Positions 1-63,020 of a DNA stretch of 64,000 nt are shown piece by piece. The notes beneath the pieces are model-generated. The model ran no database searches, was not told where the DNA came from, and saw only the letters and a program-made list of their open reading frames with translations. The position numbers and the translations under genes were made by a program. Each line of letters begins with the position of its first letter. The first letter of the stretch is position 1. The stretch covers positions 30,318,001-30,382,000 of the forward strand of contig NC_135824.1 of assembly GCF_964213995.1 (NCBI RefSeq), read 5' to 3'. This DNA is from Mustelus asterias (lineage: Eukaryota).

Positions 1-80
1 AATCCAAGTTGTTCATTCTGCTTCTCTCTCCACAGATGTTGCTGGACCAACTGAGGATTTCCAGCATTTTCTGTTTTTGT
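1..80 (+). mobile_element. PLE terminal-repeat fragment (family 2)
   Basis: ctctccacagatg...tttccagcattttctgtttttg matches the copies at 18349-18528 and 53595-53692. Confidence 0.55.
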
Positions 81-6443: not shown

Positions 6444-7266
6444 TGACATCACAGTCAAGCCATCATTCAATTGCTTTGCAGTTGACACAGGAAGGAGAAA
6501 TGTTACAAGGGTGTATTGCTGCAATATTGGCTGGGGCATTTTGGGCAAATCATGTGACGGAATCTCCAGGAATGCACTCAGTCGCAGTTGGCAACCCAAT
6601 GTCACTGCCTCAGGATGAATCAGACTTCTTGGCTTCCAAATTGAGCCCACTTTCCAAACTCCACAGCCTCAGAAAGAGACCACCCAGCTCCTGGATCTTG
6701 GTGGTCAGATACACGAGAACAGCGGCCATGTAGGCAGGGGCCGTGAGGGAGGGAGTTCCAGGATTTTGACTCCGGGGCAGTGAAAGAGATGGTGAGTCAG
6801 GATGGGGTGCAGCTTGGTGAGGTGATGTCTGCAAGCGTGTAGACCCTTGTCCTTCTATTTGGTAGAGGTCACGGGTTTGGAAGATGCTGTTGCAGAGCCT
6901 TGGTGAGTTGCTAGCTTTCTTATACACTCTTAAATTTAATTCCACTGCACTGTTACTTCTCAATGGTGTCACATTGGTGTTACTTATATAGGGTGGCACG
7001 GTGTTAGTGGTTAGCACTGCTGCCTCACAGCTCCAAGGACCCGGGTTCAATTCGCGGCTTGGGTCACTGTCTGTGTGGAGTTTGCATCTTCTCCCCATGT
7101 CTACGTGGATTTCCTCCGGGTGCTCCGGTTTCCTCCCACAGTCCAAAAGACGTGTTGGTTAGGGTGCATTGGCCATGCTAAATTCTCCCTCAGTGTACCC
7201 GAACAGGCACCAGAGTGTAGTGACCAGGAAATTTTCACAGTAACTTCACTGCAGTGTTAATGTAAG

Positions 7267-7455
7267 TCATGATGTTGTAAGTATTCGCATTCCAACCATT
7301 ATTCATGTAAATTGAGTCTGTGTCTTTATAAGTTCTGTTTGTGAACAGAATTCCCACTCACCTGAAGAAGGGGCTTAGAGCTTCGAAAGCTTGTGTGGCT
7401 TTTGCTACCAAATAAACCTGTTGGACTTTAACCTGGTGTTGTTAAACTTCTTACT
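7267..7455 (+). mobile_element. PLE pLTR fragment (family 1) with 13-bp TSD
   Basis: Matches 62740-62914. TSD at 7254-7266 and 7456-7468. Confidence 0.85.
7359..7395 (+). ncRNA. Minimal type I hammerhead ribozyme motif
   Basis: cac-CTGAAGA-a-ggggct tag agcttc-GAA-AGCT-T-gtg. Confidence 0.65.
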
Positions 7456-8289
7456 GTGTTAATGTAAGCCTACCTGTGACACGAATAAAACTTAATTATT
7501 GACTATTTCTTCACCACGTGCGCTCCCTCCCTCACCCTCGGCTGTGTCCTTTTCCCCAGAGTTGGTGAAGACATTATTTCCTTGAATTCCCAAATGCTTC
7601 CAATCACCGATGATCGATCTCGAACGAAGACAATTGCTTTCACAATTTTAACAAGCAGCGATGGTTTTTGAGTATATTTGAATACTTCTTCCCACCCCAA
7701 AACATAATGAATAGAGTCATAAAGTCATAGAGGTTTACAGCATGGAAACAGGCCCTTTGGCCCAACTTGTCCATGCCGCCCAGTTTTTACCACTGAACTG
7801 GTCCCAATTGTCCACATTTGGTCCATCTCCCTCTATACCCATCTTACCCATGTAACTGTCTAAATGCTTTTTAAAAGACAAAATTGCACCCGCTTCTATT
7901 ACTACCTCTGTCAGCTTGCTTCAGACACTCACCACCCTCTGAGTGAAACAATTGCCCCTCTGGACAATTTTGTATCTCTCCCCTCTCAGCTTGAACCTAT
8001 GCCCTCTCGTTTTAGACTCCCCTATCTTTGGAAAAGGGAACCTCGTTTCAGATGACACCATTTGAAATCAGAGCAGCGTTGGACACTCACTCACTGCCTT
8101 CTGTAAACGCTGAGGGATTTCGGAATGTTTCTGCCAGGATCCTCCCACCTCTATAATATTGACTACCCCTGCCTCAGCTTAGCTCGTACTGAGATACCCA
8201 TCCATACCATTGTCACCTTTAAACTCATTCCCGAATTCATTTCACCAGCTTTACCCCCTCCATGAACGGTTGTGCATCCTAATCTATTC

Positions 8290-14977: not shown

Positions 14978-15585
14978 GGAGGTGATGGCCTGGTGGTATT
15001 ATCGCTACACTGTTAATCCAGAAACTCAGCTAATGTTCTGGGGATCCGGGTTCGAATCCCGCCACGGCAGATGGTGGAATTTGAATTCAATAAAAAAATT
15101 AAGTATCTGCTGATGACCATGAAACCATTGCCGATTGTCAGAAAAATCAATCTGGTTTAAAGTTCATTTATTAGTGTCACACAAAGGCTTACGTTAACAC
15201 TGCAATGAAGTTAGTGAAAATCACCTAGTCACCCCACTCTGGCATCTGTTCAGGTAGAGAGAGAGAATTTAGCATGGCCAATGCACCCAATCAGCACGTC
15301 TTTTGGACTGTGGGAGAAAACTGGAGGAAACCCAGACACAGGAAGAACATGCAGACTCTGCATAGACAGTGACCCAAGCTGAGAATCAAACCCGGGTCTC
15401 TAGCACTGTGAGGCAGCAGTGCGAACCACTGTGCCACTGTATTCACTAATGTCCTTTAAAGAAGGAAATCTGCCATCCTTACCTGGTCTGGCCTACATGT
15501 GACTCCAGCAACGTGGTTGGCTCTCAACTGCCCTCCAAGGGCAACTTGGGTGTGCAATAAATTCTGGCCAGCCAGCGACACAGTG
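14978..15585 (+). mobile_element. Third-type SINE with nested minus-strand type B V-SINE (15157-15440)
   Basis: The host resumes at ttcactaatgtccttt after the insert. Confidence 0.8.
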
Positions 15586-17305
15586 TCGGTCTTCACGGTA
15601 GAGGACACAAATAGCTTACCGAAAATTGACGGTCGTGGGACTGTAGGGGGTGAGGTCCTTAAAATGATTACCATTACTAAAGATGTTGTGCTTGGTAGGC
15701 TAATGGGACTAAAGATAGACAAGTCCCCGGGCCCGAATGGAATGCATCCCAGGGTAATGAAAGAAATGGCAGAAGTAATAGCGGATGCGTTGGTTGTAAT
15801 TTATCAAAATTCGCTGGACTCTGGGGAAGTGCCGGCTGATTGGAAAACAGCTAATGTGATGCCACTGTTTAAAAAAGGAGGTAGACAAAAGGTGGGTAAC
15901 TACAGACCGGTTAGCTTAACGTCCGTAGTTGGGAAATTGCTGGAGTCATCATTAAAGAAGAAATAGCAGGACACCTGGAAAACAATGGTTCGATCAAGCA
16001 GACGCAGCATGGATTCATGAAGGGAAAGTCGTGTTTGACGAATTTACTGGATTTTTATGAATATGTAACGAGTGCGGTTGACAGAGGGGAACCGGTGGAT
16101 GTGGTGTTTTTGGATTTCCAGAACGCGTTCGATAAGGTGCCTCACAAAAGGTTGCTGCAGAACATTAAGGTACACTGAGTTGGGGGGTAAAGTGTTAGCG
16201 TGGATTGAGGATTGGCTATCTAACAGGAAGCAGAGAGTTGGAATAAATGGGAGCTTTTCTGGTTGGCAGTTGGTGACCAGTGGCGTGCCGCAGGGATCAG
16301 TGCTGGGGCCTCAACTGGTTACCATATACATAGACGATCTTGAGGAGGGGATCGAGTGTAGGGTAACAAAGTTTACGGATGACACAAAGATGAGTGGGAA
16401 AGCGAATTGCGTGGAGGATGCGGAAAGTCTGCAGAGAGATTTGGACAGGCTAAGTGAGTGGGCAAGGATCTGGCAGATGGAGTATAACGATCACATGTGA
16501 GAGGTTATCCACTTTGGAAGGAATAATAGTAAAATGGACTATTTAAATAGTGAAAAATTACAACATGCTACTGTGCAGGGGGACCTGGAGGTCCTTGTGC
16601 ATGAATTGCAAAAATTCAGTTTGCAGGTGCAGCAGGTGATCAAGGCGGCAAATGGAATGTTGGCCTTTATCGCGAAGGGGATGGAGTATAAAAGCAGGGA
16701 GGTCTTGCTGCAACTGTACAGGATACTGGTGAGGCCGCATCTAGAGTAGTGTGTGCAATTTTGGTCCCCTTGTTTGTGAAAGGATATATTGGCCTTGGAG
16801 GGAGTACAGAGAAGGTTCAACTAGGTTGATACCAGAGATGAGGGGGTTAGCTTATGAGGAGAGATTGAGTAGATTGGGCCTGTACTCGTTGGAGTTTAGA
16901 AGGCTAAGGGGAGATCTTATAGAGACATATAAGATAATGAAGGGGCTAGACAGGGTAGAGGCAGAGAGATTCTTTCCACTTAGAAAGGAAACAAGAACTA
17001 GAGGATACAGCCTCAAAATAAGGGGGAGTCAGTTTAGAACAGAGTTGAGGAGGAACTTCTTCTTCTCAGAGGGTAATGAATCTCTGGAATTCTTTGCCCA
17101 TTGAAGCAGTGGAGGCTACCTCGTTAAATATATCTAAGACACAGGTAGATAGATTTCTGATCAATAAGGGAATTAAGGGTTATGGGGAGCGGGCAGGTAA
17201 GTGGAACTAAACCACTATCAGATCAGCCATGATCTTATTGAATGGCGGGACAAGCTTGAGGGGCTAGATGGCCTACTTCTGCCCCTATTTCTTATGTACT
17301 TATGA
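15578..17305 (+). mobile_element. CR1 LINE ORF2 (RT) fragment, frameshifted, with 3' tail
   Basis: KSPGPNGMHPRV.KE, NYRPVSLTSVVGKLLE, SGVPQGSVLGP, FTDDTK; several stops and frameshifts; cttatg tail. Confidence 0.95.
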
Positions 17306-18347: not shown

Positions 18348-18528
18348 CAAAAACAGAAAATGCTGGAAAATCTCAGTACGTCTGACAGCATCATTAGGGG
18401 ACGGTGTGTCATCCAGACTCGAAACATTGGCTCTATTCTCTCTCCACAGATGCTGTTGGACGTGCTGAGATTTTCCAGCATTTTCTGTTTTTGTTTCAGA
18501 TTCCAGCATCGGCAGCATTTTGTTTTTG
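18348..18528. mobile_element. PLE family 2 inverted terminal-repeat insertion
   Basis: Inverted arms of about 45 bp (18348-18391 and 18449-18493); only the right arm has a ~35-nt extension. Partial hammerhead remnant gactc-GAAACATT-ggct. Confidence 0.7.
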
Positions 18529-19130: not shown

Positions 19131-20823
19131 ATCTGACCTTTCAGTCACTGGAGCATCATGTTCCTACTCTGTTGTGTCACTTTTGTTGCTGCGGGCTGGT
19201 GGATAGCTATTTTCTTTGAATTATCGGGAGTCACTCAAGATCTCATAAAGCAGCTAAACAGAGTTAACTTGCATTTTGGCATTGCAAGAATTTATGTAAA
19301 ACACCGCAACACCCAAATTATTCAGGATATGGAATTCTGTTCATTATCTTCAATGAATTATTAGTGAAGGACTGAAAGCTTGGTAGCAGTTTGTCCTCCT
19401 TTCTATCTCAATAATAGATGAAATATCTCCCAATCAAGATCTGGAAAAGCCTCGTGTCTTGATTATTTTGTTCTTTTCCTTGTGTGCGTTTGTTTTCTGA
19501 GGGGACCCAGAGCGCGAAAATGCTGGGTGCAGAGTAAACAGAGTTTTCCTACTGAACCCAGGGAGGCCCAACCCAGAAGAGGTGAAGTGATTTCTAAGAA
19601 AGGAACATTGTGCGATGTTAAAATGGAGAAAACACTGGATAACTGTTCACTACCTTATTTCAGAACCCTATAAATTTTCCACGCACAATGGATACTATTT
19701 GCGTGCTGAAATTAGTCCAAAAACAACTTGCGCGAGATGCAAGCACGCATTGTGTGAACGTTTCAACTGAAATGGGCCACAAAGCCATTTTGCTTGTGCC
19801 CATTATCCTGATTTCTGCGGCTACAGGCATTAATCAAACGTGCCTCTGAGGTGACATGCAAAGATTCAGAGGTATGCGAAACGACTGTGCACTTTTGAAA
19901 ACACTTTTGGGAGTGTTTTAAGTCAGGTTCAGTGGCCCAGGAAGAATGGAGCTATTCAGTCACTCTTGAAAGAACAGGGGGAGCGGGGGATAGAGGCTGC
20001 CAAAGAAAAAGGGTGTATCACAAGAATCAGGCTTGTGGGTTACTGAGGAAGGACAACATGGCCATTCTGAAAGCAAGACACTACATGACACGAAGGAGAA
20101 TTGACCACAATTATATAAATAACTACTGGACTGGGAGCTTGTGCCATGTGCAGGCAGCATCACATTAACACGGTTAGCCACACATGCCTTGCTGACTAAA
20201 AGCTAGAGATTTCAAAGATCGTTCAATGGGAATATGAATACCTGTGAAAACAAAACTGTGCCTAACCAATTCATTCTACAGAAAATGCTGAGCTCCCGAG
20301 GGTTTCTGAAGTAACATTGGTCACAAGAACAGAGCCTTCTGCTTGGGATCCCAATACACGTGAAAAGCCACCACACTACCTGAAGCCCCAAACATAAGCT
20401 GAGATCTCTGCACAAGTGTCCTTTCAATCTACTCTTCCCATAGGAATGGCTGCCACTGGTCCAAGCTGGGACCTGTTTTAAGTGTGGACGGACAGCAGCC
20501 AAGCTCAAGGATTGGTTAGCATTGGAGCTCAACAAAATGGATGACGCTGCACTTAACCAGAAGATAGTGGTACGCTCTCCCTTACTTGCCCCGTAATATA
20601 GACAACACCATTTTAAGGACATTAGATTTCAGAGTTACATGAAGTTAAATGGAATGACCATCAGCCCGATGGCTGGGTAAATGTGACTGAATATTTCTGA
20701 TGACCAAGACATCACAACACCATGGACTGCCAACTCGTAAAGTATAGCAGTGAACATAAGACACATAAGAAATAGAAGGCTGGTTGGCCCTTGAACCCGC
20801 TCCGTCATTCAATATGATCATGG

Positions 20824-21021
20824 TGTGGAGTTGCCGGCGTTGGACAGTAAGTAGTCTCACAACACCAGGTTAAAGTCCAACAGGCTTATTTGGTAGCACG
20901 AGCTTTCGGAGCGTTGCCCCGATTCGTTGCCCAGACTCACCTGATGAAGGGGCAACGCTCCGAAAGCTCATGCTACCAAATAGACCTGTTGGACTTTAAC
21001 CTGGTGTTGTGAGACTACTTA
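20824..21021. mobile_element. PLE family 1 inverted pLTR insertion with 14-bp TSD and hammerhead motif (+, 20937-20973)
   Basis: Inverted arms of about 70 bp; TSD caata(t/c)gatcatgg at 20810-20823 and 21022-21035. Confidence 0.85.
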
Positions 21022-21299
21022 CAATACGATCATGGCTGATCTTCCACCCCACTCTCCCGCCCAATCCCCACATCTCCCGATTCCCAAGAAGTTCAATCCT
21101 GAGAAAATCTATGAACGGGAACAAATCAAGTTTCTCATCGTGCTGACATCATGCAGTTAATGAATGGAAGCTAATGATTTTTTCTTTAAATAGAACACAG
21201 CGCATCGAACGTTACCCTGCAGGGTCAACGTAAAATAAAACAACAGGATGGCTGTAGGTAATCTGCTATTAACATAAAGGAAGAACGCCAAATCAGCTT

Positions 21300-26716: not shown

Positions 26717-26824
26717 TCATGACATGTCGTTTGGGTCATATTCCAGAATTAACTGTTTGATGTGTGCTAGCTTCCGGTGCAGGTATTCACAGCGAACCTT
26801 TTCTTCCCGATATGTAGGGTGGGT
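26717..26824 (-). CDS. ELL3: ELL-family terminal coding exon with stop
   Basis: aacag|ACC...TGA, followed by a second in-frame TGA. THPTYREEKVRCEYLHRKLAHIKQLILEYDPNDMS*. Confidence 0.96.
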   Translation of the reverse strand, partial: THPTYREEKVRCEYLHRKLAHIKQLILEYDPNDMS

Positions 26825-27294: not shown

Positions 27295-27782
27295 AGAATC
27301 ATGGAACCCCTACAGTGCAGGAGACCATTCAGCCCATAGAATCTGCACCGACTCTCTAACAGACTATCTTACCCAGGCCCTCTTTCCCCCGTCCTATCCC
27401 CACACATTTAGCATAGCTAATCCATTTAATTTACACGTCTTGGGACACTGAGGAATTTTTTTTTAAAATCATACCAATCCACCTAACCTGAACGTCTTCA
27501 GACTGTGGGAGGAAACTGGAACGCCCAGAAGAAGCCCAAGCAGACACAGGGAGAACGGACAAACTTCACACAGATAGTCACCCAAGGCCAGAATTGAACC
27601 CGGGTCCCTGGTGCTATGAGGCAGTAAGAAGTTTAACAACACCAGGTTAAAGTCCAACAGGTTTATTTGGTAGCAAAAGCCACACAAGCTTTCGAGGCTC
27701 TGAGCCCCTTCTTCAGGTGAGTGGGAATTCCACATCATGTCCACGCTATGAGGCAGCCACACTGTATCACCATGTGCTGCCC
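27295..27782 (-). mobile_element. V-SINE, tail type A, with PLE insertion
   Basis: Head split at duplicated GCTATGAGGCAG. Confidence 0.8.
27625..27744 (-). mobile_element. PLE family 1 pLTR fragment with 12-bp TSD and hammerhead motif (27682-27720)
   Basis: Minus strand: cac-CTGAAGA-a-ggggct cag agcctc-GAA-AGCT-T-gtg. TSD at 27613-27624 and 27745-27756. Confidence 0.85.
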
Positions 27783-29331: not shown

Positions 29332-30133
29332 CTGGCAGCTGCAGTGCTACAGCAGTCCTCAGTTTCTCCACGCTCCTCTGGGCACTGTGGGCAGCTGATG
29401 GAAATTACTCCTCTACTTTTCAAACTTGTGCACTTTCCTGGAAAGTTAAACTTCTTTGCAAAATGACAGTAATTTTTTTTAAAACCATTCCATGATGTAA
29501 TTTTAGGCCTTACACTTATTGAACTTATTTTTTTAAAAAAGGGAGCCTAGGCATTGTCAAATTGTGGTGGAATAGTCAAAAAGCAAATATGAGGCCGATG
29601 TTCTATTGGCTAAGAGGAATCCAATTTTTATTATTATACTGTAATGAGAGCAGTTAAAGTCAAAGTGATGCAGCATTTTATGGTCGATTTGCATCTTTAT
29701 TCTTTAAATACAAAGTCTGACATGGTGTACAATGAACATTTAATTATGTTGTTCTAGCTCTTTAGCATGCCTGAATTGGTGTCAATCAGGTGTGAAAGTA
29801 GCTGAATATCATTCTATTTTAATTAATTCCCTCCTCTCCTTCAATAATTTAAAGACAATAGGCTTACTAATTTAACATACTTCACTTGCACAGATATAAA
29901 TCAACGTTAAAAGTAATATTTAATACATTTAGGAAGGCACACAATTATTTAAACTTACAAACACAAGGTGCCCCCTCCCCCAACCCCTTAGTGGCCATGT
30001 TATCAGTCAACCAGTTTGTATAATACCTCAGGAACAGGTGAAGTTTAAGGAGAGGGAGAAGACTGGGAGTGGTGGGGGTTGAGTGAGTGAGAGAGAATTG
30101 AACAGCACAACCTAAGAATTTGCATTCTCTTAC

Positions 30134-30305
30134 CTTGTATTCCTTTGTTCCTGGGCTAAGTGTTTTGATTTTTGATCCCAACTGTATGAATTGCTGAGTT
30201 ATGTTTCCAATTCTTGCATGAAGATCCCGATATTCGCTGTATTCTGCGTTGAAATCGTTCCGATAGTTTTGACACATTTCTAAAGACATAACGGCAGTAT
30301 ACTTT
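30134..30305 (-). CDS. ELL3: ELL-family exon (exon 10 equivalent, 172 bp), occludin/ELL domain
   Basis: ttgcag|A AAG...AAG|gtaaga. KYTAVMSLEMCQNYRNDFNAEYSEYRDLHARIGNITQQFIQLGSKIKTLSPGTKEYK. Confidence 0.96.
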
Positions 30306-37886: not shown

Positions 37887-38986
37887 CTGTAGATAAGATC
37901 ATACAGGTTATTTGACTATCTAAAATATTAAATGTCAACGGACTTACTAATTGCCAATAGTAATTACATGGCTATTTTTTGGTAATAGACATTGGTAGCA
38001 ATGTATGATTGATTTCCTTTAAAGACTTCACTGGTAACAGCTGCTTGGGTTAATGGATCTTCGCAGTTATTTATTGTCAGTAATCAGCAAAATGAAAAAA
38101 GCTTTGGCACTTTGTGTACACAGTTAAAAGCAAACATACTTCACTGCATCTGTCACATTTCACAGAACCATGGACACAATGTTTGAACAGCTAAGGTAAC
38201 TGGAAGTAGAAAGACTAATTAATCTCTTTTGCTGTCAAACTTACACAAGAACATACCGGTTAGTTCCTACTGGTTTTGAGTAATATTTCTGCAAAGCTAA
38301 ACTGAGTAGCATATTTTATAAAAGATACTGTTAAAATAAGGCTTCATATTTAATCTTAATTCATTAATTAAAAAAGTGAAAAACATCTGCAATTATGTTG
38401 ACGATTGCATCAGTCATTGCTGTTGTGAGTGCAGCAACTATTCAAGTTGCACAATTTATGCAGATTAAGGGGCTTTTGCACTTTTAAGATGAAATTGCAT
38501 TCAGCAACTCCATTTGTACTCAATCCACTTTTCCTTGCTCTCTGATCTATTGAAGAGCAGTCAGTATTTAATTATAACCCTCATTATTGACTAAGGGGCC
38601 CTGTGACTTCTAGGAGTAAGAGCAGGCCATTCAGCCCCTCAGCCTCTTATGCCTCCAATTAGAAGATGGTGAATCTTCATCTCAGCCCTATTTACTCACC
38701 TTATTTCTAACATCTCTTTCTACTACTGCCCGACAAAATCTATTTTGTAGACCAGTTTCATTAGCGTTAAGATGCAGGAGGGGAAGGAAGCAAGCAGTTA
38801 TCAAGACCTGTGTTAAATTCTTTACCATTTAAAGTTGTGTTGAAAAATGTTAAAAATTACCTGAAAGTGACACGTTTTTAGTTACAACATTTTCTAATCA
38901 TTCATCTAGTCATTGATAGTTTGGAGATTCACAGCACTGCAAAATCTTATCATAAATTTAAAAACCCTTCGTGACACAAATGTTAC

Positions 38987-39488
38987 CTTCAACATCCTCT
39001 TTGTCCCGTTTTCCGACCCGATGTATCGGACTCTCCTTTAGCCACGTTCTTGCTTCTGGTTTTGTGTGCTCTCTCATTTTCTCTTTGTGCTTTTTGGACT
39101 TCTTTCTAATGTGACTGGCAGAGAGTTCCAGATCTTCTGCATGGGGATAAGCTGTCTGTTCTAAACTCGCTTGGGCAACTGGATTCCTAGGGCTACCAAC
39201 GATATCCCTGTTGCCTTTGAATTCTTTATCATTTCTGCTCGAGTCACTTTTTGTGGAGTTGCTGCACTTTTTAAATGGTTCATTAAACTCATTTTGACAC
39301 ACGGGCAGTGAAGTGCGGGTTTTCTGGAAGTCAGTTTTAACTGTTACACAGGAATTTGCAGTGGCAGTAAGGCATGCTGAATTAGGAAGATGTCCATTCA
39401 AAACAGGATGTGGATGACCCTTGGATTGTAAGACTTTACTTCTCTTGGTCGTGTGAGAATCTGTCCGTTCTGAAGGCACTGGTCGTTT
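38987..39488 (-). CDS. ELL3: ELL-family exon (exon 8 equivalent, 502 bp) with Lys-rich NLS-like motif
   Basis: ttccag|AAA...G|gtaaca, phase 0 to 1. Lies in ORF 38958..39524 and contains RKKSKKHKEK as in ELL/ELL2. Confidence 0.9.
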
Positions 39489-40425
39489 CTGGAATAAGGA
39501 CACATTTTTTTTAAAAATGAACATAGCTGCAATCTTTTAACCATGTCAACAAATTCTTTGTGGTCGTGACAAAAGCTATATCACATTTCACAGGCAACAT
39601 AATGTAGGAGACAATTTGCATGTTGACTACCCAACTTCACCGTTGACTTACTTCCACAGTTATGCATTGATTGACAGAAGGGATGACAATGGTGTACAAG
39701 TTACTTTTTTAAAAATTCTGAATGCAATGAGTAGCTACTCCGAGCAATACTGCTACCAGCCAGTAGCAATGTTTCCCCGTGTATTTATTACAAGTAGATC
39801 AACAATTTAAAAAAAAACAAGGTTGAACCATTAAATGTTCCCAGTTTCATCCTTGGCCAATTTAAAGTACAACCATAAATCAACTATGGCATTAGAAGTG
39901 TCAGGTTAAACATGTCTGGGCAAGAGTGCCAAAGTACAATTCATGTTTTTGGATTGAAATGTAATGCAAGCAGACTAGTTTAAAAATCACTAACATATTT
40001 GGCTGCAGAGATTCGTTGCAATGAATGGGAGAAGGGGGGGGGGGGGGGGGGGGAAAGAGGCAAGGGCGCCGAGCGAGGCGGGGGGCAGAAGGCAAGGAGG
40101 CCGAGCGAGAGTATATCTTCTTATACCGATTCTGCATCATCAGTTTATACTTGCACACGTATATATATTACAGATATATGTAGAACAGTCCACTTCCACT
40201 CAGATTAAAACTAACCCCAAATTCCATGTTTGTTCACTTTGGCATTTTCAAAGATCCCAATTCTCACTAAAACTTCACATTTTAATACCAAGGAAACGTG
40301 AACAAGGCGACCATTCTATTAAAGCTCAATGGAGCTCCCCAAATATCCAGAACATATTTTTCAGTTGCAGCAGACAAGTTACTGCAGGAAATGACATAAA
40401 AACAATCATAAATTTGACTCTTTAC

Positions 40426-45845: not shown

Positions 45846-47004
45846 AAAATGGCAAGACAGAAAATCTTCCTGGGTCCTTCTGAATCTTTGAAGGAAGTAT
45901 TATAGTGCTGACATCCAATAACATAATTCAATCCAGTTTAAAATTAAGACAGTTTAATGTGCTGCGTAACTTGCAGTTAGTCATTGAACCAAAATAAAGA
46001 TATTCACATTTCAAGGATTGAGTGGAACTACATATTAATTAATGTAACAGCGGAAGTGCATGCTGTTATTTTATAAGGCACGCCATCAAAATAGGGGGGT
46101 TGGTTCGCTCAGTCGACTAGGTGGCCAGCATGCGAATCAGAATCACATTAACAGAACAGATTTGATTCACGTTCTGGCCGAGGTAGACTTGGGACCTGCA
46201 AAGGGAAGCCACCACCAATAAAGATCAGCAAACAAGGACATGCCATCACAAAGGAAGTTGGTAGATGGCCCGTCAGCTGGAGCCCAGTCTAACAAATTAA
46301 GGGTCTCTTTTTACCTTTGCTGCTATTTTACCAGCGACTGGGGGGCCCTCCACTGCTGGGGAGACTACCAGCTCGATCTTGGCAGCCTCTGACATGGAGG
46401 AACCTTCCTTTATGGGCACTTCTGGCCTACAGTGGGGGCACTGTCAACAATTACGTTGGTGTGTGACAAATGTATATTTTTAAAAAACTTGTTTATCAAT
46501 AACAATTAACTTCTTGGCATTAAGACACAGGTCCGTTTAGACAGTTTCATCTCAATAGCAGCAATATAGCACGAGTATAATACTTATTATAAACCAGAAT
46601 TCTTACCACTAATGGTTTACAGTACCATGGAAGACTTCCTTATTGAGTTCACATGACATCACAAGAATAGAATCCCTACAGTGCAGAAGGAGGCCACTTG
46701 GCCCATCGAACCTGCACTGACAACAATCCCACCCAGGCCCTATCCCCGTAACCCCAACTATTTACCCTGCTGATGGCCCTGACACTTAGGGGCAATTTAG
46801 CATGGCCAATCAACCTAACCCGCACATCTTTGGACTGTGGGAGGAAACTGGAGCATCAGCATGGACTGGTTTGACAACTATTACAGAAGTGAAACTGACA
46901 AGCCTGGTCAATGCCTCTAATTGATCTCTAAATATACCTATGTAAACACTTCTGCATTGGTCAGGCCTAGCTGTCAAAGCTAGGAGGCTAGGAACACATG
47001 AAGT

Positions 47005-48220
47005 AAGTGTGGAATACAAGGTAAGTAGAAAGAAACTTAAGCAAGGAGTAAGAAGAGCTAGAAGGAGTCATGAAAAAGCATTGGCCAGCAGGATTAAGGA
47101 AAATCCCAAGTCTTTTTACACATATATAAAGAGCAAGAGGGTAGCCAGGGAGAGGGTTGGCCCACACAAGGACAAGGGAGGGAATCTAAGTGTGGAGCCA
47201 GAGGAAATGGGCGAGGTATTAAATGAGTACTTTGCATCAGTATTCACCAAAGAGAAGGACTTGGTGGATGATGAATCTGGGAAAGGATGTGTAGATAGCT
47301 TGAGTCATGTTGAGATCAAAAAGGAGGTTGTATTGGGGTTCTTGAGAAACATCAAGGTAGACAAGTCTCCAGGGCCTGATGGGATATACCCCAGAATACT
47401 GAGAGAGGCAAGAGGGGAAATTGCTGGGGCCTTGAGAGAAATCTTTGTATCCTCACTGGCTACAGGGGAGGTCCCAGAGGATTAGAGAATAGCCAATGTT
47501 GTTCCTTTGTTTAAGAAGGGTAGCAAGAATAATCCAGGTCATTACAAGCCGGTGAGCCTTATATCAGTGGTAGGGAAATTATTGGAGATATTCTTCGAGA
47601 CAGGATTTATTCCCACTTGGAAATAAGTGGATGTATTAGAGAGGCGCAACATGGTTTTGTGAAGGGGAGGTCGTGTCTCACGAACTTGATCGAGTTTTTC
47701 GAGGAAGTGATTGATGAGGGTAGGGCAGTGGATGTTGTCTACATGGACTTCAGAAAGGCCTTTGACAAGGTCCCTCATGCAGACTGGTGCAGAAGGTGAA
47801 GTCGCATGGGATCAGAGGTGAGCTGGCTACATGGATACAAAACTGGCTCGGTCAAAGAAGACAGAGGGTAGCAGTGGAAGGGTGAGTTTCTGAATGGAGG
47901 GCTGTGACAAGTGGTGTTCCTCAGGGATCAGTGCTGGGACCTTTGCTGTTTGTAAGATATTATATATATATATATTTTTTTTTGCGGACGACACAAAGGT
48001 TGGTGGATTTGCGGATAGCGATAAGGACCATCAGAGGATACAGCAGGATATAGATCAGTTGGAGACTTGGGCAGAGAGTTTAATCCGGACAAATGTGAGG
48101 TCATGCATTTTGGAATGTCTAATACAGATAGGAAATATACAGTAAATGGCAGAACCCTTAGGAGTATTGATAGGCAAAGGGATCTGGGTGTACAGGTACA
48201 CAGGTCACTGCAAGTGGCAA
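47005..48220 (+). mobile_element. CR1 LINE ORF2 fragment, decayed
   Basis: IKENPKSFYTYIKSKR, KSPGPDGIYPRILRE, QHGFVKGRSCLTNL, YMDFRKAFDKVPH, FADDTK. Confidence 0.92.
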
Positions 48221-48478
48221 TGCTTTATAGGAGTGTGGTTCAAATAGATATACCTGGAGACCAATTACAGTCTAATTGCTGCAGGAATTTTCTGTAGGTT
48301 GACAGCTGCTTATAAATCCCAGACACCAGGCCTTGGGTGAGAGGCTAAATTAAGGTCTGAAAACTTAGCATGAATCTCCACTTTTAAAAACTTGCAACAT
48401 TTTGAAGTGCATGGTCTGAAGCATGAGAAAAGTATATTTGATGCAGGCTTAGGTAAGAACAGGTGTATAAAAGTATAC

Positions 48479-48603
48479 CTTATTAGGTGTCTTCGAATCA
48501 ATTGCCTTTCCTCCTCACTATAGCCAGGCCAATCCTGTTGGATTTCCTTGTAGAGCTCATCTTTTAGTGTATAGCTGCTGTCTTTTGCATTTAACTTTGC
48601 TAC
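48479..48603 (-). CDS. ELL3: ELL-family exon (exon 6 equivalent, 125 bp)
   Basis: tttag|GTA...AG|gtatac, phase 0 to 2. VAKLNAKDSSYTLKDELYKEIQQDWPGYSEEERQLIRRHLI contains the ELL DWPGYSE motif. Confidence 0.95.
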
Positions 48604-49269
48604 CTAAAGGCAGAACACAAGATGTATGCTTAGAGCAGAATAATCCAAACAAGCAAGTGGATACCGTAAAAGAGGTTTTGAAACTGTAATGACATTGAAT
48701 TACTATTCAAAGTAGGTTTGTTAGTGTGGATGATTGGGGAAAGAAAAGTCATTCAAATATTTTTCAGAGTATGTTCCAACAAAATAAACATTGCAATAAA
48801 GCATATCAAGTTTAATTTCAATGAAGTGTAAATAATTCACCATTGGAAAGAACACAAAAACATGCCCGCACAATGCAAATACTGAACCAAACCTATTTCA
48901 CGTTGACATCAATATTGCTGAGTTAAAGATATGCTGCTGCAAATTGCTCATTCTACAATGCTGATTGTATTATTTGGACACTTCTCTGAATGAACTTAGT
49001 AATGTAAAACATTGGATTCAGTTACAAACATGTTTTTAAGATCACCAAATGAACAAGTTGATGAGGTTAGGTGTTTTTGTTTTGCAGAGGATTATCAGGA
49101 CATGGAACGTCACATTAGAAACACAGACCATAAGATGTAGGAGCAGAAGTAGGCCATTCAGCCCATCGAGTTTGCTCAGTCATTCAATGAGATCATAACC
49201 AATCTGCTATGACCATCTTCAATTTAACTTTCCTGCCTTATCCCATAACCCTCGACTCACTCCCTAATT

Positions 49270-50807: not shown

Positions 50808-50921
50808 CTGATGTGGAGATGCTGGTGTTGGAGTGGGGTGGGCACAGTAAGTCTCACAACACCAGGTTAAAGTCCAACAGGTTTATTTGGAATCACAAGC
50901 TTTCGGAGCACTGCTCCTTCT
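50808..50921 (-). mobile_element. PLE family 1 3' end with tail, truncated inside the hammerhead core
   Basis: Reverse complement of 62833-62950; stem II and GAAAGCT are present, CTGANGA is not intact. Confidence 0.8.
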
Positions 50922-52449
50922 GCAGAATCTATTCGATTTTTAAAGTTTTTTTGAAAGAAAACCTTATTTTGACTTTAGACATTTCAATTCCTGGTCAAAA
51001 AATGGCTACTGAATTATTTTCAAAAAGCATTGATGAACAAACCACAAAAGCAGAATGATTGAATGCTGAGAATGCCATTCTAAATAAAAGATAAAAAGTG
51101 TTGATTTTAAATTTTAACTATGGGTTAAATGTTGATGTAAGCTATGTATCTGGAAATAAGGTCTGTAGACAGATACATGGGCCTTGCATAAACTAATGCA
51201 CACTATTTGAATTTAGGTATTCCTCACAGCACAGCTGCTATGTTTACACATAGTGGATGCTGTGTACTAAACATCAACTTCATTTTGCCAAAAGTTGCAT
51301 TTGAAATGGGCTTCACTAGAACCCCATTAAATGAGAGAAAATACAGGCTTATTCTGATAGCTCTGAGGGCTTTAAGATCTTAAATAGTTCAACTTGATTA
51401 ATATTTTAGATTTCAAAATATCTCAAAAGATTTTGAAATTATTTGTACTGTCCAGACCTATGCAAAAACAATTAAATCCTAAAGTTCCAAATTATGCATG
51501 CACTCCAAAGATGCACAAGTTAGGTTGATTGGCCATGCTAAATTGTCCTTTAGTGTCCCGGCATGAGTAGGTTACAGGGATTAGTAGGTAAATATGTGGG
51601 GTGACGGGGATTGGGTCTGGGTGGGATTGTTGTTGGTGCAGACTCGATGGGCTGATGGCCTCCTTCTGCACTGTAGGGATTTTATGATTCTATGATTCTG
51701 ATGCAAAAAGCAAGCTAAACCATCAGTATATCTCTCCAGCTTGTGGGGAAATCTGTAGTTTTACAAGATTAGGACTTTATACAACGTGATGCATATTCTA
51801 CTACTTTGCTTTATGGTGGAATGCCTCACATCTGGTGTACCTTCAAGAGCATAAAGTCTAATTTGTAATTAGGCACAATCGAGATTGATTAGAGGCAAAT
51901 TTCCTCTTAGCAACACTTTTCTACACTGCCTTTTGTTACTGGCAGCTTCCCATTGAATCCAGAATGAATGCCTGTTGTTCTGTGAATATATTTAAGCCAA
52001 TCTGGTGTTTATGTGACGTTAATCATCCATAAGCAATACTGCCCAATGTGATCAACATGCTAGATGCAATAAATATGTAAAGCAATAGTTAAATTTCCAC
52101 AGGATGTGAACATGAGAATTATCTGTTAAAAGATAAATACGAATTGCAGTTGTCTGAACAAGCGTTTTTTTGACTTGAGATGTTCAATCTGTTGGGTAAA
52201 AGTAATTAAGATATGCCTTTGCATGGCTATGATATTTTATATGTATTTGCCTAAATATGCAACCATATTTAGATTCAGAAAGAGATAGACACAGTGAGTA
52301 AAATGCTATAGCTGGTGATGTTCCTACAACGTTGGTCATTGGGAATTCTATGCCTATTAACTATGCATATTATGTGCTTCAGTGGCACAATTGGTTAGCA
52401 CATGGTACTAATACAGCAGTGTGCCAGCTGGCTACGCTAAGGTTGTGAC

Positions 52450-53440: not shown

Positions 53441-53594
53441 TTGGTGGTGATGTGTTGGTGGTGATGGAAGGGTTTCCCCAGAGCAGGGCAAGGAAGTAAA
53501 GCAATGGGACAGGTCAACTGTTCACAGGGATTTCCTTAAGCAGGGTTGCAAATGAAAAAAAAAAGTGGTCCAGGCAGTAGCAATGCTTCCATTG

Positions 53595-53692
53595 AAACAA
53601 AAACAGAAAATGCTGGAAAATCTCAGCAGTCTGACAGCATCCGAGGAGAATAGAGCCAACGTTTCGGGTTGGGATGACCCTCTGTCAGAGCT
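53595..53692 (-). mobile_element. PLE family 2 pLTR fragment with variant hammerhead motif (53654-53692)
   Basis: Minus strand: agct-CTGACAGA-gggt catccca accc-GAA-ACGT-T-ggct. Confidence 0.65.
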
Positions 53693-53969
53693 GGGTTTTG
53701 CTTTTATGTTTCTATTGAGTTGGGCCATTAAATCTAAGAGAGGGGTCAGGCCAGGGAGTAAGGTTGTAAAATGGGTTGAGTGCCAACGTGGTTTTCTTGG
53801 AGTGAGGTTGGGAATTTTTTTTTGAAACTACATCTGGAGTTGGAATTAGAATTAGGTGAAAACAGGAGAAGTAAACAATGGGAGAATTTTGAATAAAAAT
53901 AAAAAGCAAAACTTGTGAAATAACAAACAAAGGTTGGCAGACGTTAACTGATTAGAGTGGAGAGAGCAC

Positions 53970-54270: not shown

Positions 54271-55490
54271 TTAATCATTAATATAATCTATTCAAAGCAG
54301 TAGAAATTACAACGTTGAAATAGTTAAATGCCTCAAGGCACATTGGACAGAAGGTGTCAATATCTCTTGGCATTACCATTGCTACAAACGTGTTATTAAA
54401 TTCGGACGATAAAAAAATAAGACATGGGTGTGTCTGTGCACAAGAAGAAGGGTACACATTGCAGTGATGTTTCTAGTTAGAATAACAACTCTTGAGAATA
54501 GGCACTGGTGAAAGGATTTGGAGTTGTTTATATGCACAAACATGCTCATCATGAAAACGTCAATTAAACCAATACTGAATTAAACTGCAAAACAGATGGA
54601 CTGTCAGCTATTCCCAGAAAACAGGCAGGTAAAAATAGTGGAATGGCAAACATCATGTCCGCTGTGGCTCTGTTGTCAGGTTACAGATACTTTTTACATT
54701 TAAGTACTGAACGCTGCCAATTGTTCCTACTGGCAAGGAGCCTCTTCCTCCAGGTTATATTCCCTTTGAAATTAATTTGTGTTAATTAATTATGTGACTA
54801 CCAATTAGCATCTTATTTTTTTACTCTTAAGGTTTCTTAATAGTATGTCAGAGCGTCTGTTACTTCTGGAAATAGATTTCCACTAAACCCTTGCTCAGTC
54901 TAACCAGAACACCTGCAACATTTTCTCAAGAGGTGGTTTTTGTAACATTGTAAAGGATTTTTTTGTGAGAACAATGTGTGAGCATAATAATTGCTCCAGC
55001 AGTGAGAGGGGGCTTCTTTTATATCTGCATGGAGTTAGTTACATATTTTGAGTTTTATAAACTGAAGAGTTTCAAAGACAGAATTCACTGAACACTAGGA
55101 AAACAAAAACAAGGTTTGAATGACATATTTTAAGGAAACACTGAAAAGACGATGGGACACGTTCAAAATCTGCATACTTAGATTAACCAAAGCAATTCAT
55201 TTTACAGAATTGCACAGGCTGAAATGTATCAGAAAATTGAGAAGTACATAAATATTTGTGACAATCTTATCAAAAAACATTTAGTAATGGTACATTTAAT
55301 GACAAACAGAATATTGAGTTCCATTAAATAATTCTATAAAAATATTTGGAAATATACTAACATACATTACAGAAACTTGTGCAAACATGCCATATTATTC
55401 CTCTGCTTTGAATTATCTGCTGTGTTATAGAAGTATAGCAGAACAGGAGGGAAACATGGGCTACAATTTACCTCCAATCATTCCTGAAAA

Positions 55491-55640
55491 GTAAGTAGTC
55501 TCACAACACCAGGTTAAAATCCAACAGGTTTATTTGGAATCACGAGCTTTCGGAGCGCTGCTCCTTCATCAGGTGAATGGAGAGGTTGTGTTCACAAACA
55601 CGGCATATTTAGGCAAAGGCACAATTGCAAGATAATTACT
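55491..55640 (-). mobile_element. PLE family 1 pLTR fragment (tail-less)
   Basis: Reverse complement of about 62760-62912. Confidence 0.8.
55540..55576 (-). ncRNA. Minimal type I hammerhead ribozyme motif, intact core
   Basis: tcac-CTGATGA-a-ggagc agc gctcc-GAA-AGCT-C-gtga. Confidence 0.78.
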
Positions 55641-56602
55641 TGATAAGATAATTAATTACAATTGTGTCTATATATATTCTATATATGCCGTGGATATATA
55701 TATCCTATAATAATTGGATACTAGACTCAGATAGATGATCATTCTATCTGGCTTCTACAACTTGTGAATTTTTTTGTTTTTCAAATTTGTGAATTCTGAA
55801 AAATGCAGAATTACATTAATAGATTAACGTGCGGAACTACTGAAACTGGTCTTAAATTTTGGTGCAGAAATTATGCAACTTTAACACTATGGCGCGGTAC
55901 CTTATTAGAAGGGCAATATTTAGATTCATAGTAAGGATCAATTCTTAAAAATGGAGTTAAAATTATTATAATTCATAGCTATCAATGTGAACAACTGTTT
56001 TTTTTTTCCTGAATTTTGTTCCTATAATTCAGCTAGAGCACCCTACTTGCTTCATTGGACATCTTTTGGATTACAATGGCTTCCAACTTCAATCGTGCCA
56101 GCATGGCTCATTGATAGCTCTCTTGCCTCTGAGTGACAAGATAATGGCTTCAAATAGAGCCGGAGCTGCTGTCTTTTCAATGAGTCATTAAACTGAGGCA
56201 CAGTCTGTTCTCTCAGGTGGATCTACTTGGCACTATTGCAAGATGACCAGCGGATCCTGTTGGTGTTCTGGCAAATATTTATTCTGGCAGATGTTTATCC
56301 CTCAATCAACATTCCCAAAGCAGATTAATCTCAATGCTGTTTTGGGTGACATTGCTGTGTGCACGTTAGCTACCTCGATTCCCTATGCTACAATAGTGAC
56401 TATCGCCGGAATTCTACCGCCTCGCCCGCCACGGAATCGGAACGGGCGAGGGGCACACAACGGAAATGTCTGTTGACCTTGGGTGGGAATTTCCGGTCTC
56501 GCTCGAGCGAGGCAGTAAAATCCCGCCCTGTGTGTCAAAAATTATTTCATTAGCTTTGTAAAGGCAGTATACAATTTCAAGTTCTCACTTTGATTTTCTC
56601 AC

Positions 56603-56868
56603 CTGGTCCAATACAAACGACAGTTCAGCTTTGTCCTTTGGGTTTGCTTTCTCTCTCTCCAACCATAGAATAAGTTCAGGCTTTTTATATGGCTTCAAAG
56701 CCAAAAGGTGGATGACACGATCTTTAAGAGGCTTTTGGCTAATCGTACTGACATAGTTTTTCTTCACCCCATAGCACGGATTCATGGTTGGAGAATGTCT
56801 TCTCAGTGGAATGCCATCAGCAGCTTGGCTTGTGGTCTGCTTTCGACTATGGACTGGCTTTCGCACAC
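56603..56868 (-). CDS. ELL3: ELL-family exon (exon 5 equivalent, 266 bp)
   Basis: cctag|GT...CAG|gtgag, phase 1 to 0. Contains QKPLKDRVIHLLALKPYKKPEL, a hallmark of the ELL central domain; overlaps ORF 56585..56866. Confidence 0.95.
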
Positions 56869-57210: not shown

Positions 57211-58918
57211 AAAACTGGCCACGCATACTGGTGTAAAAGCTGAATTTTTAAAACAATTATTTTAAGCCAAAAGACATATTGCCGATTTTTGCATGGGTAA
57301 TATTTTTGAGAGGTTGACATGAGTGTTTGGGTTTTCCACAATGAATGGACAGGGTGACCACTAGTGGCTATGAAGCTGAGGTTATGCCAAAATATTTTAA
57401 ATAGTTTTTAAACCCACTATAAAAGGAAGCCAACGTCTGTTAAACTTTCCAAAGCCGTAACCATATACTGCTGCAAAAATAACACCAGTCTGTAATTGTG
57501 TGTGTATTTTATAAAATTATTCTTCCTTTACTAGTTTTTGAGTGATACATCTGTCAGCCCACCTTATATTATTGCATTATGCAAAGTTCCAGTCAATATT
57601 CTCACCCCTTTAAAATGAAAATAAATCAGCATTTATGTCAGCGACTCGTACATCACTATAATTATCTCTTAGGAGTTATTTTTTGTTACCCACATTTAGT
57701 ATTGGTTGGTTTCACTCTTGCCTTTCCAGTTGTAGCCCAAGCATTAAAAGCAATAGCTTCTCTTTTCCCAGATCCACATAACCCTTTAGTCATGACATTT
57801 TTGGGCTTTGTTCCCTTAAAGCCGGGGTCTAATCTCACATGAACAGTGAAAATTCCCAGCTTCTCAGGTCAAAAGTCAACTTTTACATGGGATTGATTTT
57901 TACATGAGTATATACAGTAACTCAAAGTTGAACGTTAAAGTATGGCTTGTTTTTACAATTACTCAACGGCAGGAAGCATGAGTTCCAAGTAGCATTTTTA
58001 TATTTGGAACAAAAACGTGCAATTTATTATGAACTGCAAAATGATTTCAAGTTGTTATTTAAAATGGAGTGTACAGTTTAATGATTTACATTTCATATCT
58101 TAAAATATTTGAATTGGAATGCAGTACGACAGCAGTTTTCAAAGTCATGTGTTCTTCCTCTGCAAAAACTATGTAAATTAAAAAGAGGAATAGGTGCGTA
58201 CATAAATTTACGCATTGGCATTGACTCCTATTCAGCATTACCTATTAATTATGGGTTTAAACATAGCCATTTACTCGACAGAAAACATGTCGTATGTGAC
58301 GTAGCTTATGAGAAAATTAAATCCAGCAGCTAAATGCCCATATTACCTTGAATTATGTCTGTCACTTTGTGTAGCAACTGTTCAGTAAACTAACTGGTGA
58401 TCACTCCTAAAGGATGCAGTATTTTCCATTGGAAAGTAGAACAATTACATAATACAATTATGATAAAGTTGCATATAGGTTAAGGGGCCACTTTGTCCCA
58501 GCTTTATTTTGTGACCAGAACGAAGTTGAAGCAGCACCATTGCGCCGGTTGAGCAAATAACATGTTATCAATACTTATATTATTCTGCAATTTTAAGCGA
58601 TTAATTAAATATATTTAACCAGGTGCGCAATCGTACATTTTTGCCAGTTAAAATAAATGAGGAAATATTTATCGGTAATTATGACAGATATAATATTTGG
58701 GGCAAAGATGCTACAGCTGCATTTCCGTGACCAGGCACAATTGCGTTTTCAACCAACTTGCCAAGTTAGAAATTCAGCAACAAACCACAAGCACCACAGG
58801 GCATATTTCCATAGGAATCAAATTATGAGACTAACTATCTGACAAGAGGCCAGTATATTTTGTTGAATCAAGCATTACGTGTGTACAGACTATCACTTCA
58901 TTAGTGTGACATTTATAC

Positions 58919-59082
58919 CTTGACATGACGACTCTGGTTTAATTTCTATAGTTGTTCGACTCCATGATTCCTTCTCTACTTGTGACATTCGTTCTCGAGT
59001 CATCTGGTAAGAGTCATCAGTGGCACAAACTGTGATTTTATCTTGAATACTCCCCAGGCAATCAAGTTGGTCTCTTTCAAAA
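58919..59082 (-). CDS. ELL3: ELL-family Pol II elongation factor, coding exon equivalent to ELL2 exon 4 (164 bp); first exon visible in the window
   Basis: ccag|...|gtataa, phase 2 to 1. Encodes [49 protein letters not shown], containing the ELL N-terminal motif [19 protein letters not shown]. Family call is firm; ELL3 paralog call is inferred from the C-terminus. Confidence 0.93.
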
Positions 59083-59361
59083 CTGGTTTAAACAACAAAA
59101 GCAGAACAAAACCAAGACTCAGCAACATATCCTTCAACAAGTATTAACCAGTTCCAAAATATTCTATTCTTTTGTTAAACCTTCAATAAAAATAAAATCT
59201 ATACAAAGCCATTTTAAAAATAATTTGTCATATAAGCACACACACAAAATCGCATCATTAGAAAGCAGAAAAATCTCAAAGTGATGCAATTGTACTTTAA
59301 TACGAGATTACCTATCTTCTATTATGATTGTTCTCGTTCTCTGAAGTTCATACAATAAAAT

Positions 59362-60840: not shown

Positions 60841-61735
60841 ATTATTCAGACAGTTTTCGTAGGTTAAACAAAGAACAAGGCAACTTTAATGAAACGATTT
60901 CTCAAGTTTAAAGACTAGATAAATGCAACCACCATTTATATGGTAACACACATTGGTCTGGGCCTACACACACAGCAGTACAGATGGCAGAAAGAGGGGA
61001 CAGGCTTATAGGATTTTTTTTTCTAGTTTAAGATAAAACAAAGGAGTATAAGTTTAGCTGCTCCTCGGCTGGTCTCAATGCGGTGGCTCAATGTTTTGGC
61101 CATTTTGTTCAGTTGTTCTCCTGGGTGTAGTTGTATGGTGCAGGGTTCCATATTTTTGAGAAAAGATCTTAGTTCGCAGTTAGTTTTACTTCTCAAAATG
61201 ACCACTTTGCAAAGCAGGCACAGCACGTCCACGAGAGAGAGAGAGAGAGGGGAAGAGGAAAAGAGCACACAGCTTCAATCAGCCAGTGTTCAATACAGCA
61301 TTGTCTTTTTCACCCCTTCCCTGCTTGATAAAGCCCATGAAATATCTTGCTAGTAGTATATTCTGGACAAAGTCTATTAGTTCACATCTGCTGCAGTTAT
61401 CCTTTCGGAACAGGTACTTGTATTTTGATGTCTTATCTCAGAAACATTTGAAAAGTCTCAGCATGGTATGAATTGACAGGGGGGGAATGGGGCCTTTCAT
61501 ACTTCCCACGGGGTTGAGTGTCTGTCTTCATACCATTTGGCGGAATGTAAAAGTGTGTGTATTGCAGAAGTCTGGGCAGTTTGCCCAGTGTCTGTATTGG
61601 GTCCCAGTTTTTAAAAACAACCCAGCCAGCAAAAGAAGAATTCAAAAGTGTATCTTCAAAAAGCACATTCTCAGAACATAGCAATCGAATCGGGGCATTA
61701 TGCACGCTGACAAGCAATGCCAACATACAGCATTA

Positions 61736-61955
61736 TGTGGAGATGCCGGCATTGGACTGGGGTAAACACAGTAAAAGGTTTAACAACACCAGGTTAAAGT
61801 CCAACAGGTTTATTTGGTAGCAAATGCCATTAGCTTTCGGAGCCCTGCTCCTTCGTCAGATGGTCTGACGAAGGAGCAGCGCTCCGAAAGCTAATGGCAT
61901 TTGCTACCAAATAAACCTGTTGGACTTTAACCTGGTGTTGTTAAAACTCTGACTG
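61736..61955. mobile_element. PLE family 1 inverted pLTR insertion with 14-bp TSD
   Basis: Near-perfect palindrome of about 82-bp arms centred on 61861-61863; TSD AACATACAGCATTA at 61722-61735 and 61956-61969. Confidence 0.9.
61827..61863 (-). ncRNA. Minimal type I hammerhead ribozyme motif, intact core
   Basis: ccat-CTGACGA-a-ggagc agg gctcc-GAA-AGCT-A-atgg. Confidence 0.78.
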
Positions 61956-62518: not shown

Positions 62519-62951
62519 GCATTCTCCAAGGCGGCCTTCACGACACACGACAGCGCAGAGTCACTGAGCAGAGACCGATAGACTCAGTTCCGCAAACATG
62601 AGGACGGCCTCAACCGGGATCTTGGGTTCATGTCACACTATCTGTAACCCCCACAACTTGCCTGGACTTGCAAAATCTCACTGGCTGTCCTGTCTGGAGA
62701 CGATACGCATTTCTTTACTCTGTGCTTAATGCTCTCTCAAGACTCGCATTCCAATCATTATTCATTATTCTGTAAATTGAGTTTGTGTCTTTATATGCCC
62801 TGTTTGCGAGCAGATCTCCCACTCACCTGACGAAGCAGTGCTCCGAAAGCTAGTGGCGTTTGCTACCAAATAAACCTGTTGGAATTTAACCTGGTGTTGT
62901 TAGACTCCTTACTGTGTTTACCCCAGTCCAACACCGGCATCTCCACATCAT
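62519..62951 (+). mobile_element. Penelope-like retrotransposon 3' end: GIY-YIG C-terminus, pLTR with hammerhead, 37-nt tail
   Basis: ILQGGLHDTRQRRVTEQRPI / QFRKHEDGLNRDLGFMSHYL* with one frameshift; GLN motif typical of PLE endonuclease ends. Hammerhead at 62823-62856 has a shortened stem II. CATACACAG is duplicated at 62510-62518 and 62949-62957. Confidence 0.82.
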
Positions 62952-63020
62952 ACACAGCCCCAACAGACAACAGCTTCGCGACTGCTCAGAAGACCTCATA
63001 CTTTCACATCCTCAAGACGA

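Follow-up and report, generated by a model that had tools for sequence, protein, structure and literature searches.

Minimal type I hammerhead motifs in the terminal repeats of an abundant Penelope-like element of the shark Mustelus asterias

A stretch of 64,000 nucleotides of the Mustelus asterias genome (NC_135824.1, positions 30,318,001 to 30,382,000; hereafter the window) carries, on both strands, several copies of a short motif with the layout of a hammerhead ribozyme. We asked what kind of element these motifs belong to, whether their core and stems have been maintained as those of a ribozyme, and how so small a motif might cleave.

A hammerhead motif recurs in the window

The focal motif lies on the minus strand at 55540-55576. 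Stem I, formed by TCAC (55576-55573) and GTGA (55543-55540), is followed by the core CTGATGA (CUGAUGA in the RNA, 55572-55566), an extra A (55565), stem II (GGAGC, 55564-55560, with GCTCC, 55556-55552, enclosing AGC), GAAA (55551-55548) and GC-U, with C17 at 55544. Cleavage is predicted between 55544 and 55543. The sequence, a descriptor match and a check of the pairing identify an intact minimal type I hammerhead, and the layout given in an earlier sequence-only reading was borne out by the sequence itself. The descriptor accepted a copy as intact when stem I had at least 3 bp and stem II at least 4 bp.

The pattern CTGANGA-N5-30-GAAAGCTH had seven strict matches in the window; over 100 shuffles the average was 0.07 and the maximum 1, and a chance match was rejected. 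An Rfam scan of the window at E values up to 10 returned six matches, with no hammerhead family among them. The sequence-only reading had listed six places (7359, 20937, 27682, 55540, 61827 and 62823). The pattern was present at all six, but the stems are kept in only four (the 7362, 27686, 55544 and 61831 copies). In the 20941 copy the first stem I pair is a C.A mismatch, with the G retained in its inverted arm, and the 62827 copy has lost 3 nt of stem II. Absent from that list was a strict match at 61865(+), the inverted arm of the 61831(-) copy. Anchoring on the 3' flank, approximately 55 nt of which are common to all window copies, revealed further damaged ends: a degenerate one at 50898(-) and a truncated arm at about 20820-20927 (minus strand).

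The motifs belong to a Penelope-like element

The 62827 copy comes after a GIY-YIG C-terminal fragment, and full units elsewhere in the genome carry the motif in both repeats; the link to Penelope-like elements (PLEs), already made from the letters, held. A full unit is pLTR-ORF-pLTR and spans 3,016 bp. In three such units (L093, L098 and L099) the motif is present in both pLTRs, at a distance of 3,016-3,017 bp. The ORF has 912 codons from stop to stop and encodes 892 residues from the ATG. A 535-residue part matched RVT_1 above the cut-off (E = 4e-8) and GIY-YIG just under the Pfam cut-off of 22.6 (score 20.4, E = 6e-4); the GIY-YIG motif residues including CCHH are directly visible in the translation, and a C-X4-C-X2-C linker (CxxxxCxxC) precedes the nuclease in the translations. 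A PDB sequence search with the ORF at E values up to 0.01 gave no match. The ATG, at which the optional tail ends, follows the predicted cut at a distance of 97 nt. The element is young and intact, with an open ORF and copies about 98% alike.

Both anatomy and layout are those of endonuclease-bearing PLEs. The single ORF has RT followed by a C-terminal GIY-YIG with CCHH, and we observed partial tandems, an inverted 5' copy, a tail at one end and target duplications, all of which, like the CX2-5CxxC linker, are described for Neptune/Nematis-type EN+ elements (PMC8557442, PMC3846280). Such a linker is ascribed to the Neptune and Nematis clades but not to Penelope/Poseidon (PMC8557442); by this motif our element would fall with one of the former two. 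In the CCAT subfamilies, the youngest, the base after the cut site opens a short upstream frame (ATG, with a stop six codons on; L093:4723-4743), 97 nt before the main ATG. At L096:7486-9008 and L107:7562-9802, fold-backs of one subfamily have inserted at or beside the end of another subfamily's copy.

Insertion stubs in the window and in the genome

The focal motif is held by a 5'-truncated pLTR stub (55490-55636, minus strand), for which neither a tail nor a target-site duplication was found. Of the seven window insertions, five are flanked by target duplications of 11-15 bp when one mismatch is tolerated. Two solo stubs with intact hammerheads are located at 7264-7460 (plus strand; hammerhead 7362-7392 with a 6-bp stem II and a 3-bp stem I; 15-bp duplication, one mismatch) and 27622-27730 (minus strand; hammerhead 27686-27716; 12-bp duplication). 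Between the target duplication and these two stubs, at 7252-7283 and 27730-27756, are a few bases resembling the start of an inverted tail, as if a second fold-back arm had been begun and then dropped. The fold-back insertion 61731-61955, with a 14-bp duplication at 61722 and 61956, joins two pLTR ends on opposite strands: a tailed minus arm with an intact hammerhead (61831-61859) and a plus arm (61865-61893) without the 5' strand of stem I. A second fold-back, 20818-21022 (14-bp duplication, one mismatch), combines the broken plus-strand motif 20941-20969 with a tailed minus arm truncated within stem II. The remaining two are a PLE 3' fragment (62519-62952, plus strand), comprising a frameshifted GIY-YIG C-terminus, 3' UTR, the hammerhead 62827-62852 and a tail, with an 11-bp duplication (one mismatch), and a degenerate tailed stub (50809-50926, minus strand) with an altered core and no 5' strand of stem I.

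The focal stub lies in an intron of an ELL-family host gene (26738-59090, minus strand), between exons 56591-56863 and 48475-48606. Further exons are at 58890-59090, about 30120-30300, about 28000 and 26738-26812, with one at 38958-39536 placed by open frame only, and the first exons extend beyond the window end to G000:C24:30432323. The gene is approximately 87 kb long, and two further ELL paralogues are present on C6 and C26. Three intact hammerheads, the 55544, 61831 and 27686 copies, lie in its introns on the sense strand, the last of them in the final intron. The persistence of intact sense copies in introns suggests that they have little activity in pre-mRNA. As for other features of the window, two abundant families of what we take to be tRNA-like SINEs are found among about 20 window places (families D3-D20), fragments of presumably CR1/L2-like RT are present at 4051-4968, 15460-16500 and 46946-47485, and 569-1305 is a 700-bp purine-rich (GA) low-complexity tract.

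Genome-wide, a stricter pattern gave 128,414 matches in 3.68 Gb, and one in the reversed control. A blind sample was taken as 80 stretches of 10 kb at round coordinates (800 kb, with limited power on rare breakpoints). It contained 30 strict matches and 66 pLTR ends, which extrapolates to approximately 300,000 ends in the genome, many of them only about 135 nt long. Forty of the 66 ends formed 20 tail-out inverted pairs; exactly one tail was present in 18 of the 20 and two tails in none. A transcript through such a pair, with its motifs on opposite strands, would fold into a long hairpin. Junctions between pLTR and ORF numbered at least 1,598 by an exact pattern, so that, set against the 128,414 motifs, about one motif in 100 heads an ORF and could find a partner 3 kb further along. 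The majority of copies are stubs, either solo or fold-back, and probably inert, and few loci offer two same-strand copies within one element.

So many short ends, together with the three sense copies in ELL, could point to an independent non-autonomous ribozyme element, similar to a retrozyme or a SINE, or to co-option of the dispersed copies for cleavage of host pre-mRNA, for example that of ELL. We hold this to be very improbable. Stub haplotypes match ORF-bearing subfamilies, only 23 of 51 ends (in the first 60 stretches of the blind sample) were intact, and motif strands are balanced genome-wide in a count that ignores genes. Retrozymes are described as short head-to-tail arrays (PMC7229834), and an array of this kind was rejected, as such repeats occur neither in the window nor in the 800 kb sampled from 3.68 Gb, where the four same-strand neighbours were 1.8-8.7 kb apart.

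Core and stems across copies

As the copies are not independent, genome counts and a tree were used rather than a covariance model. For the first stem I pair, counted where H17 is A or T in order to avoid CpG decay, we found C-G 57,771 times, U-A 35,728, U.G 2,152 and C.A 935 among 96,586. TCAC/GTGA of the focal copy and CCAT/ATGG of the 61831 copy had been read as covariation. The counts established CCAT/ATGG as a true subfamily, and its origin as a by-product of inversion at 61860 was rejected. A tree was built from the 516 columns 5' of the motif. Of 92 long copies, it included 60 whose homology extends to the motif, with no more than four from any haplotype; some rare copies among them had been chosen for carrying mismatches. 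On this tree the switch is a single event, not 35,000, and the counts reflect descent. Stem I does covary, but this amounts to one event.

Stem II was said to keep its pairing despite sequence changes. Each of the 22 variants that recur at no fewer than three places has 4-6 pairs; the 62827 copy, which lacks 3 nt of the stem, does not conform. Pair 3 is A-U, G.U or G-C, pair 4 is G-C, A-U or U-A, and several types also occur at position 6. The 10.1-11.1 pair is G-C in 20 of the 22 variants and G.U in two, and the extra A between 9 and 10.1 is present in 266/268 copies of this family (family 1). Helix I, with 3-4 bp, is at or just below the published range of 4-5 bp, and helix II has 4-6 bp, the published criterion being longer than 4 bp (PMC4209133). 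In a 10-row alignment that included broken copies, pairing stood at 89.7% and three pairs had changed on both sides; 57 of 500 shuffles scored as high, which is not significant alone.

The CUGANGA, GAAA and UH elements required of a minimal hammerhead are present. Between subfamilies the core is unchanged, and loops, N7, H17 and stems have changed. The base at the cleavage site, claimed never to be G, conforms in the window, but genome-wide G occurs in 1,074 of 129,488 matches (0.8%), the level of stray mutation. We then counted columns with changes common to at least two loci. The core had one in 16 (G12, a CpG site), compared with 84/202 in the UTR (Fisher p = 0.006), 7/55 in the 3' flank (p = 0.67), 25/105 at third codon positions (p = 0.19) and 27/210 at first and second positions (p = 0.70). 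The core is therefore held about as tightly as coding sequence and no more than the flank, and DNA- or protein-level constraints may contribute. The excess of core conservation and covariation expected by the sequence-only reading was found in part: stems are compensated and the core is above the UTR, but it is not above the 3' flank.

A flank conserved as much as the core raises the possibility of a passenger hammerhead, or of a relic, kept in sequence by an overlapping promoter, RNA start or protein-binding site, with cleavage no part of the element's life. We judge this improbable. The variation sits where a hammerhead permits it (N7, loop 2, compensated stems, and an H17 that is never G in a subfamily), and base pairing is not something that a promoter is expected to keep.

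A palindromic stem III in two PLE families

Stem III had been described as the palindrome AGCT without a loop, and GC was indeed found in 23 of 23 descriptor matches (600 kb). Across family 1, positions 15.2-16.2 are GC in 257 of 268 copies; invariant as it is within the family, the palindrome is uninformative by itself. Genome-wide, 10,063 matches have a base other than G at 15.2 (control 143), and by manual count about three-quarters of 100 matches listed belong to a second family, with ACGU or CpG-decay forms of it. In this family 2, stem III is ACGU in 24 of 40 copies and a CpG-decay form in the remaining 16. Family 2 is another, older PLE whose protein is about 30% identical to that of family 1 (E = 2e-26), with stems I and II of its own and a different 3' flank; its genomic copies have a decayed GIY-YIG ORF upstream. 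Broken fragments of it are present in the window at 53593-53693(-), 18348-18498 (a fold-back) and 22-80(+). The exchange of G-C and C-G between the families, again one event, retains the palindrome, and this favours a shared stem III. That the palindrome is kept in so distant a family with a different flank also argues against a passenger.

AGCU leaves no room for a loop, and stem III would thus form between two copies. An AGCU duplex alone contributes only -3.9 kcal/mol, and protein help for the shared helix is therefore probable. For the 55540 monomer, the predicted fold with stems I and II has an energy of -11.5 kcal/mol (z = -0.80 relative to shuffles); a motif of this size is not expected to outdo shuffled sequence, and it did not. 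For the subfamily of the 7362 and 27686 copies, the lowest-energy fold is a rival hairpin over the cut site; it is a 2-nt gain after that site (27674-27726(-), 7352-7404(+)) that makes this hairpin over GAAAGCU the lowest in energy, and the predicted hairpin could act as an off state.

It is also conceivable that the ribozyme works as a protein-folded monomer, the palindrome being just the 15.2-16.2 pair of a two-pair stem III that the element's protein holds, so that no RNA partner is needed. We consider this unlikely, as A15.1-U16.1 plus a G-C pair without a loop cannot close in a single strand for steric reasons. The rarity of same-strand partners (1,598 junctions against 128,414 motifs, and 40 of 66 ends in opposite-strand pairs) would suit a monomer, as would the anole Poseidon hammerhead, which cleaved only upon addition of its protein (PMC11167929). 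On the other hand, that protein is predicted to be a dimer and may bring two RNAs together, and minimal hammerheads showed low activity as dimers and none as monomers (PMC4209133). Among Xenopus dimer elements, one of nine cleaved and eight did not (preprint 10.64898/2026.07.22.740005).

Where the stubs begin

The 5' ends of insertions were mapped by gapped alignment in a blind sample of 64 ends from 44 insertions. Sixteen of the 64 begin 1-9 nt 5' of C3; the next 120 nt contain 13 starts, and the 46 nt on the 3' side of this bin contain 12. Counted per insertion, 12 of 44 have an arm starting 1-9 nt before C3; among the 24 insertions whose longer arm ends between -45 and +129, 12 do so in the 9-nt bin (p = 5e-10, the bin having been chosen from a prior lead). 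The same bin holds four of nine window ends, as well as the starts of two of six pLTRs that continue into the ORF. At the cut site we found none of the 64 blind ends, a sample compatible with a few percent. A set of 347 copies, drawn from all loci and biased to whole motifs, contains one ambiguous copy that starts at the cut site within a base.

That no 5' ends collect at the cut site speaks for a passenger, as do observations on other elements. In anole RNA-seq no reads ended at the cut site and catalytic mutants were without effect on insertion in vitro (PMC11167929), and Naiads thrive without canonical hammerheads (PMC8557442). Our preference for a functional hammerhead rests on the placement of variation and the retained pairing described above.

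In the ACTCAC subfamilies, 24 of 40 copies have a TATA-like box 29-32 nt upstream of the A of ACTCAC; none of 57 copies of the youngest, CCAT, subfamilies has one at -29 to -32. The pile-up of 5' ends suggests a transcript that begins at this point and is copied without having been cleaved; alternatively, stalling or fold-back at stem I may account for it. A G precedes the first base in eight of ten copies at one position (p = 0.008, the position having been chosen after looking), and in copies without a close inverted arm the counts are 7/19 versus 9/57, the inverted arm itself being G-rich. We regard an untemplated, cap-derived G at the stub start as a weak lead. Parts of the pLTR are covered by RNA contigs from sequencing runs of four organisms; contigs show neither starts nor ends, and these are uninformative on expression and cleavage. 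In PLEs of other animals, a rotifer pLTR has an Inr-like and TATA pair (PMC3846280), and Drosophila Penelope has a TATA-less internal promoter (PMC2377424).

Taking the pile-up as an RNA start, we tentatively propose, as a reading that is open to real doubt, that the main RNA may start at the first bases of stem I, approximately 30 nt behind the TATA-like box. The ribozyme would clip off a capped leader of 35-37 nt and so switch the message off, and the 135-nt stubs would be mass-produced by reverse transcription that proceeds from the tail as far as an uncut 5' end.

Discussion

Taken together, it is quite probable that the motifs are minimal type I hammerheads in the pLTR of one very abundant PLE lineage, likely to cut its own RNA slowly and only upon pairing of copies or protein-assisted folding. 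By analogy with the published class, the two motifs in a transcript of a full unit would share a 4-bp AGCU helix. Selection would have acted on master elements, and the dispersed copies, including those of the window, may be decaying and probably silent stubs left by target-primed insertion, for which uncut RNA would mostly have served as the template.

The family is an additional member of the minimal hammerhead class of metazoan PLEs, as the sequence-only reading had recognized. That class is likewise of type I, with the extra nucleotide between 9 and 10.1, G10.1-C11.1, a palindromic 15.2-16.2, a short helix I, copies in both pLTRs, mostly solo copies and some close opposite-strand pairs (PMC4209133). 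It has been described in fish Xena, Poseidon and Neptune and in coelacanth, Xenopus and reptiles (Cervera and De la Pena 2014, PMC4209133); no shark is named in the text or supplements examined. The copy number of 128,414 compares with about 4,000 in coelacanth and about 9,000 in Xenopus, and helix II has 5-6 bp here versus 7-8 bp in Schistosoma (PMC4209133).

The anole Poseidon element PAc is similar in that the hammerhead lies in its pLTR and two 3' end points exist, one tailed and one tail-less, and uncut RNA is its main template (PMC11167929). The PAc ORF, however, begins within stem II and contains the cut 26 nt from its start, and the PAc clade is without the linker Zn finger that the element here possesses (PMC11167929). 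Non-LTR retrozymes also have type I hammerheads and a PLE ancestry (PMC7229834; 10.64898/2026.07.22.740005) and have been reported in one chondrichthyan (10.64898/2026.07.22.740005). Axolotl retrozymes reach up to 120,000 copies (PMC7229834), a number similar to that found here, but in a genome of 28 Gb and not 3.68 Gb.

PLEs occur in all vertebrate lineages studied (PMC4350176), the name hammerhead derives from the shark (PMC6155905), and the function of PLE hammerheads has been described as still unclear (PMC8557442). A literature search on hammerheads and PLEs in sharks, with Repbase and most subscription journals outside its scope, gave no paper describing this family. Both the class and its dimer model have been published before, as have the inverted copies and the tail, and the fold is not new. 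Small hammerhead variants cleaving as dimers were reportedly described by Luense, Weinberg and Breaker in RNA Biol 14:1499; like the present motifs they have a diminished stem III and a PLE association, and the dimer cleavage reported for them is what the present motifs would also require.

The value of the family lies in a young intact element, two lineages with swapped palindromes and more than 100,000 insertion ends, from which one can determine where the RNA starts and what proportion of templates had been cut. The AGCU and ACGU lineages constitute a natural specificity test of the dimer model. Long genes in this genome carry several sense-strand intronic hammerheads, which are apparently tolerated. 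If the RNA start proposed above is correct, this genome would preserve, in its hundreds of thousands of stub ends, a fossil 5' RACE of a Penelope transcript; these ends would also identify uncut RNA as the template in vivo.
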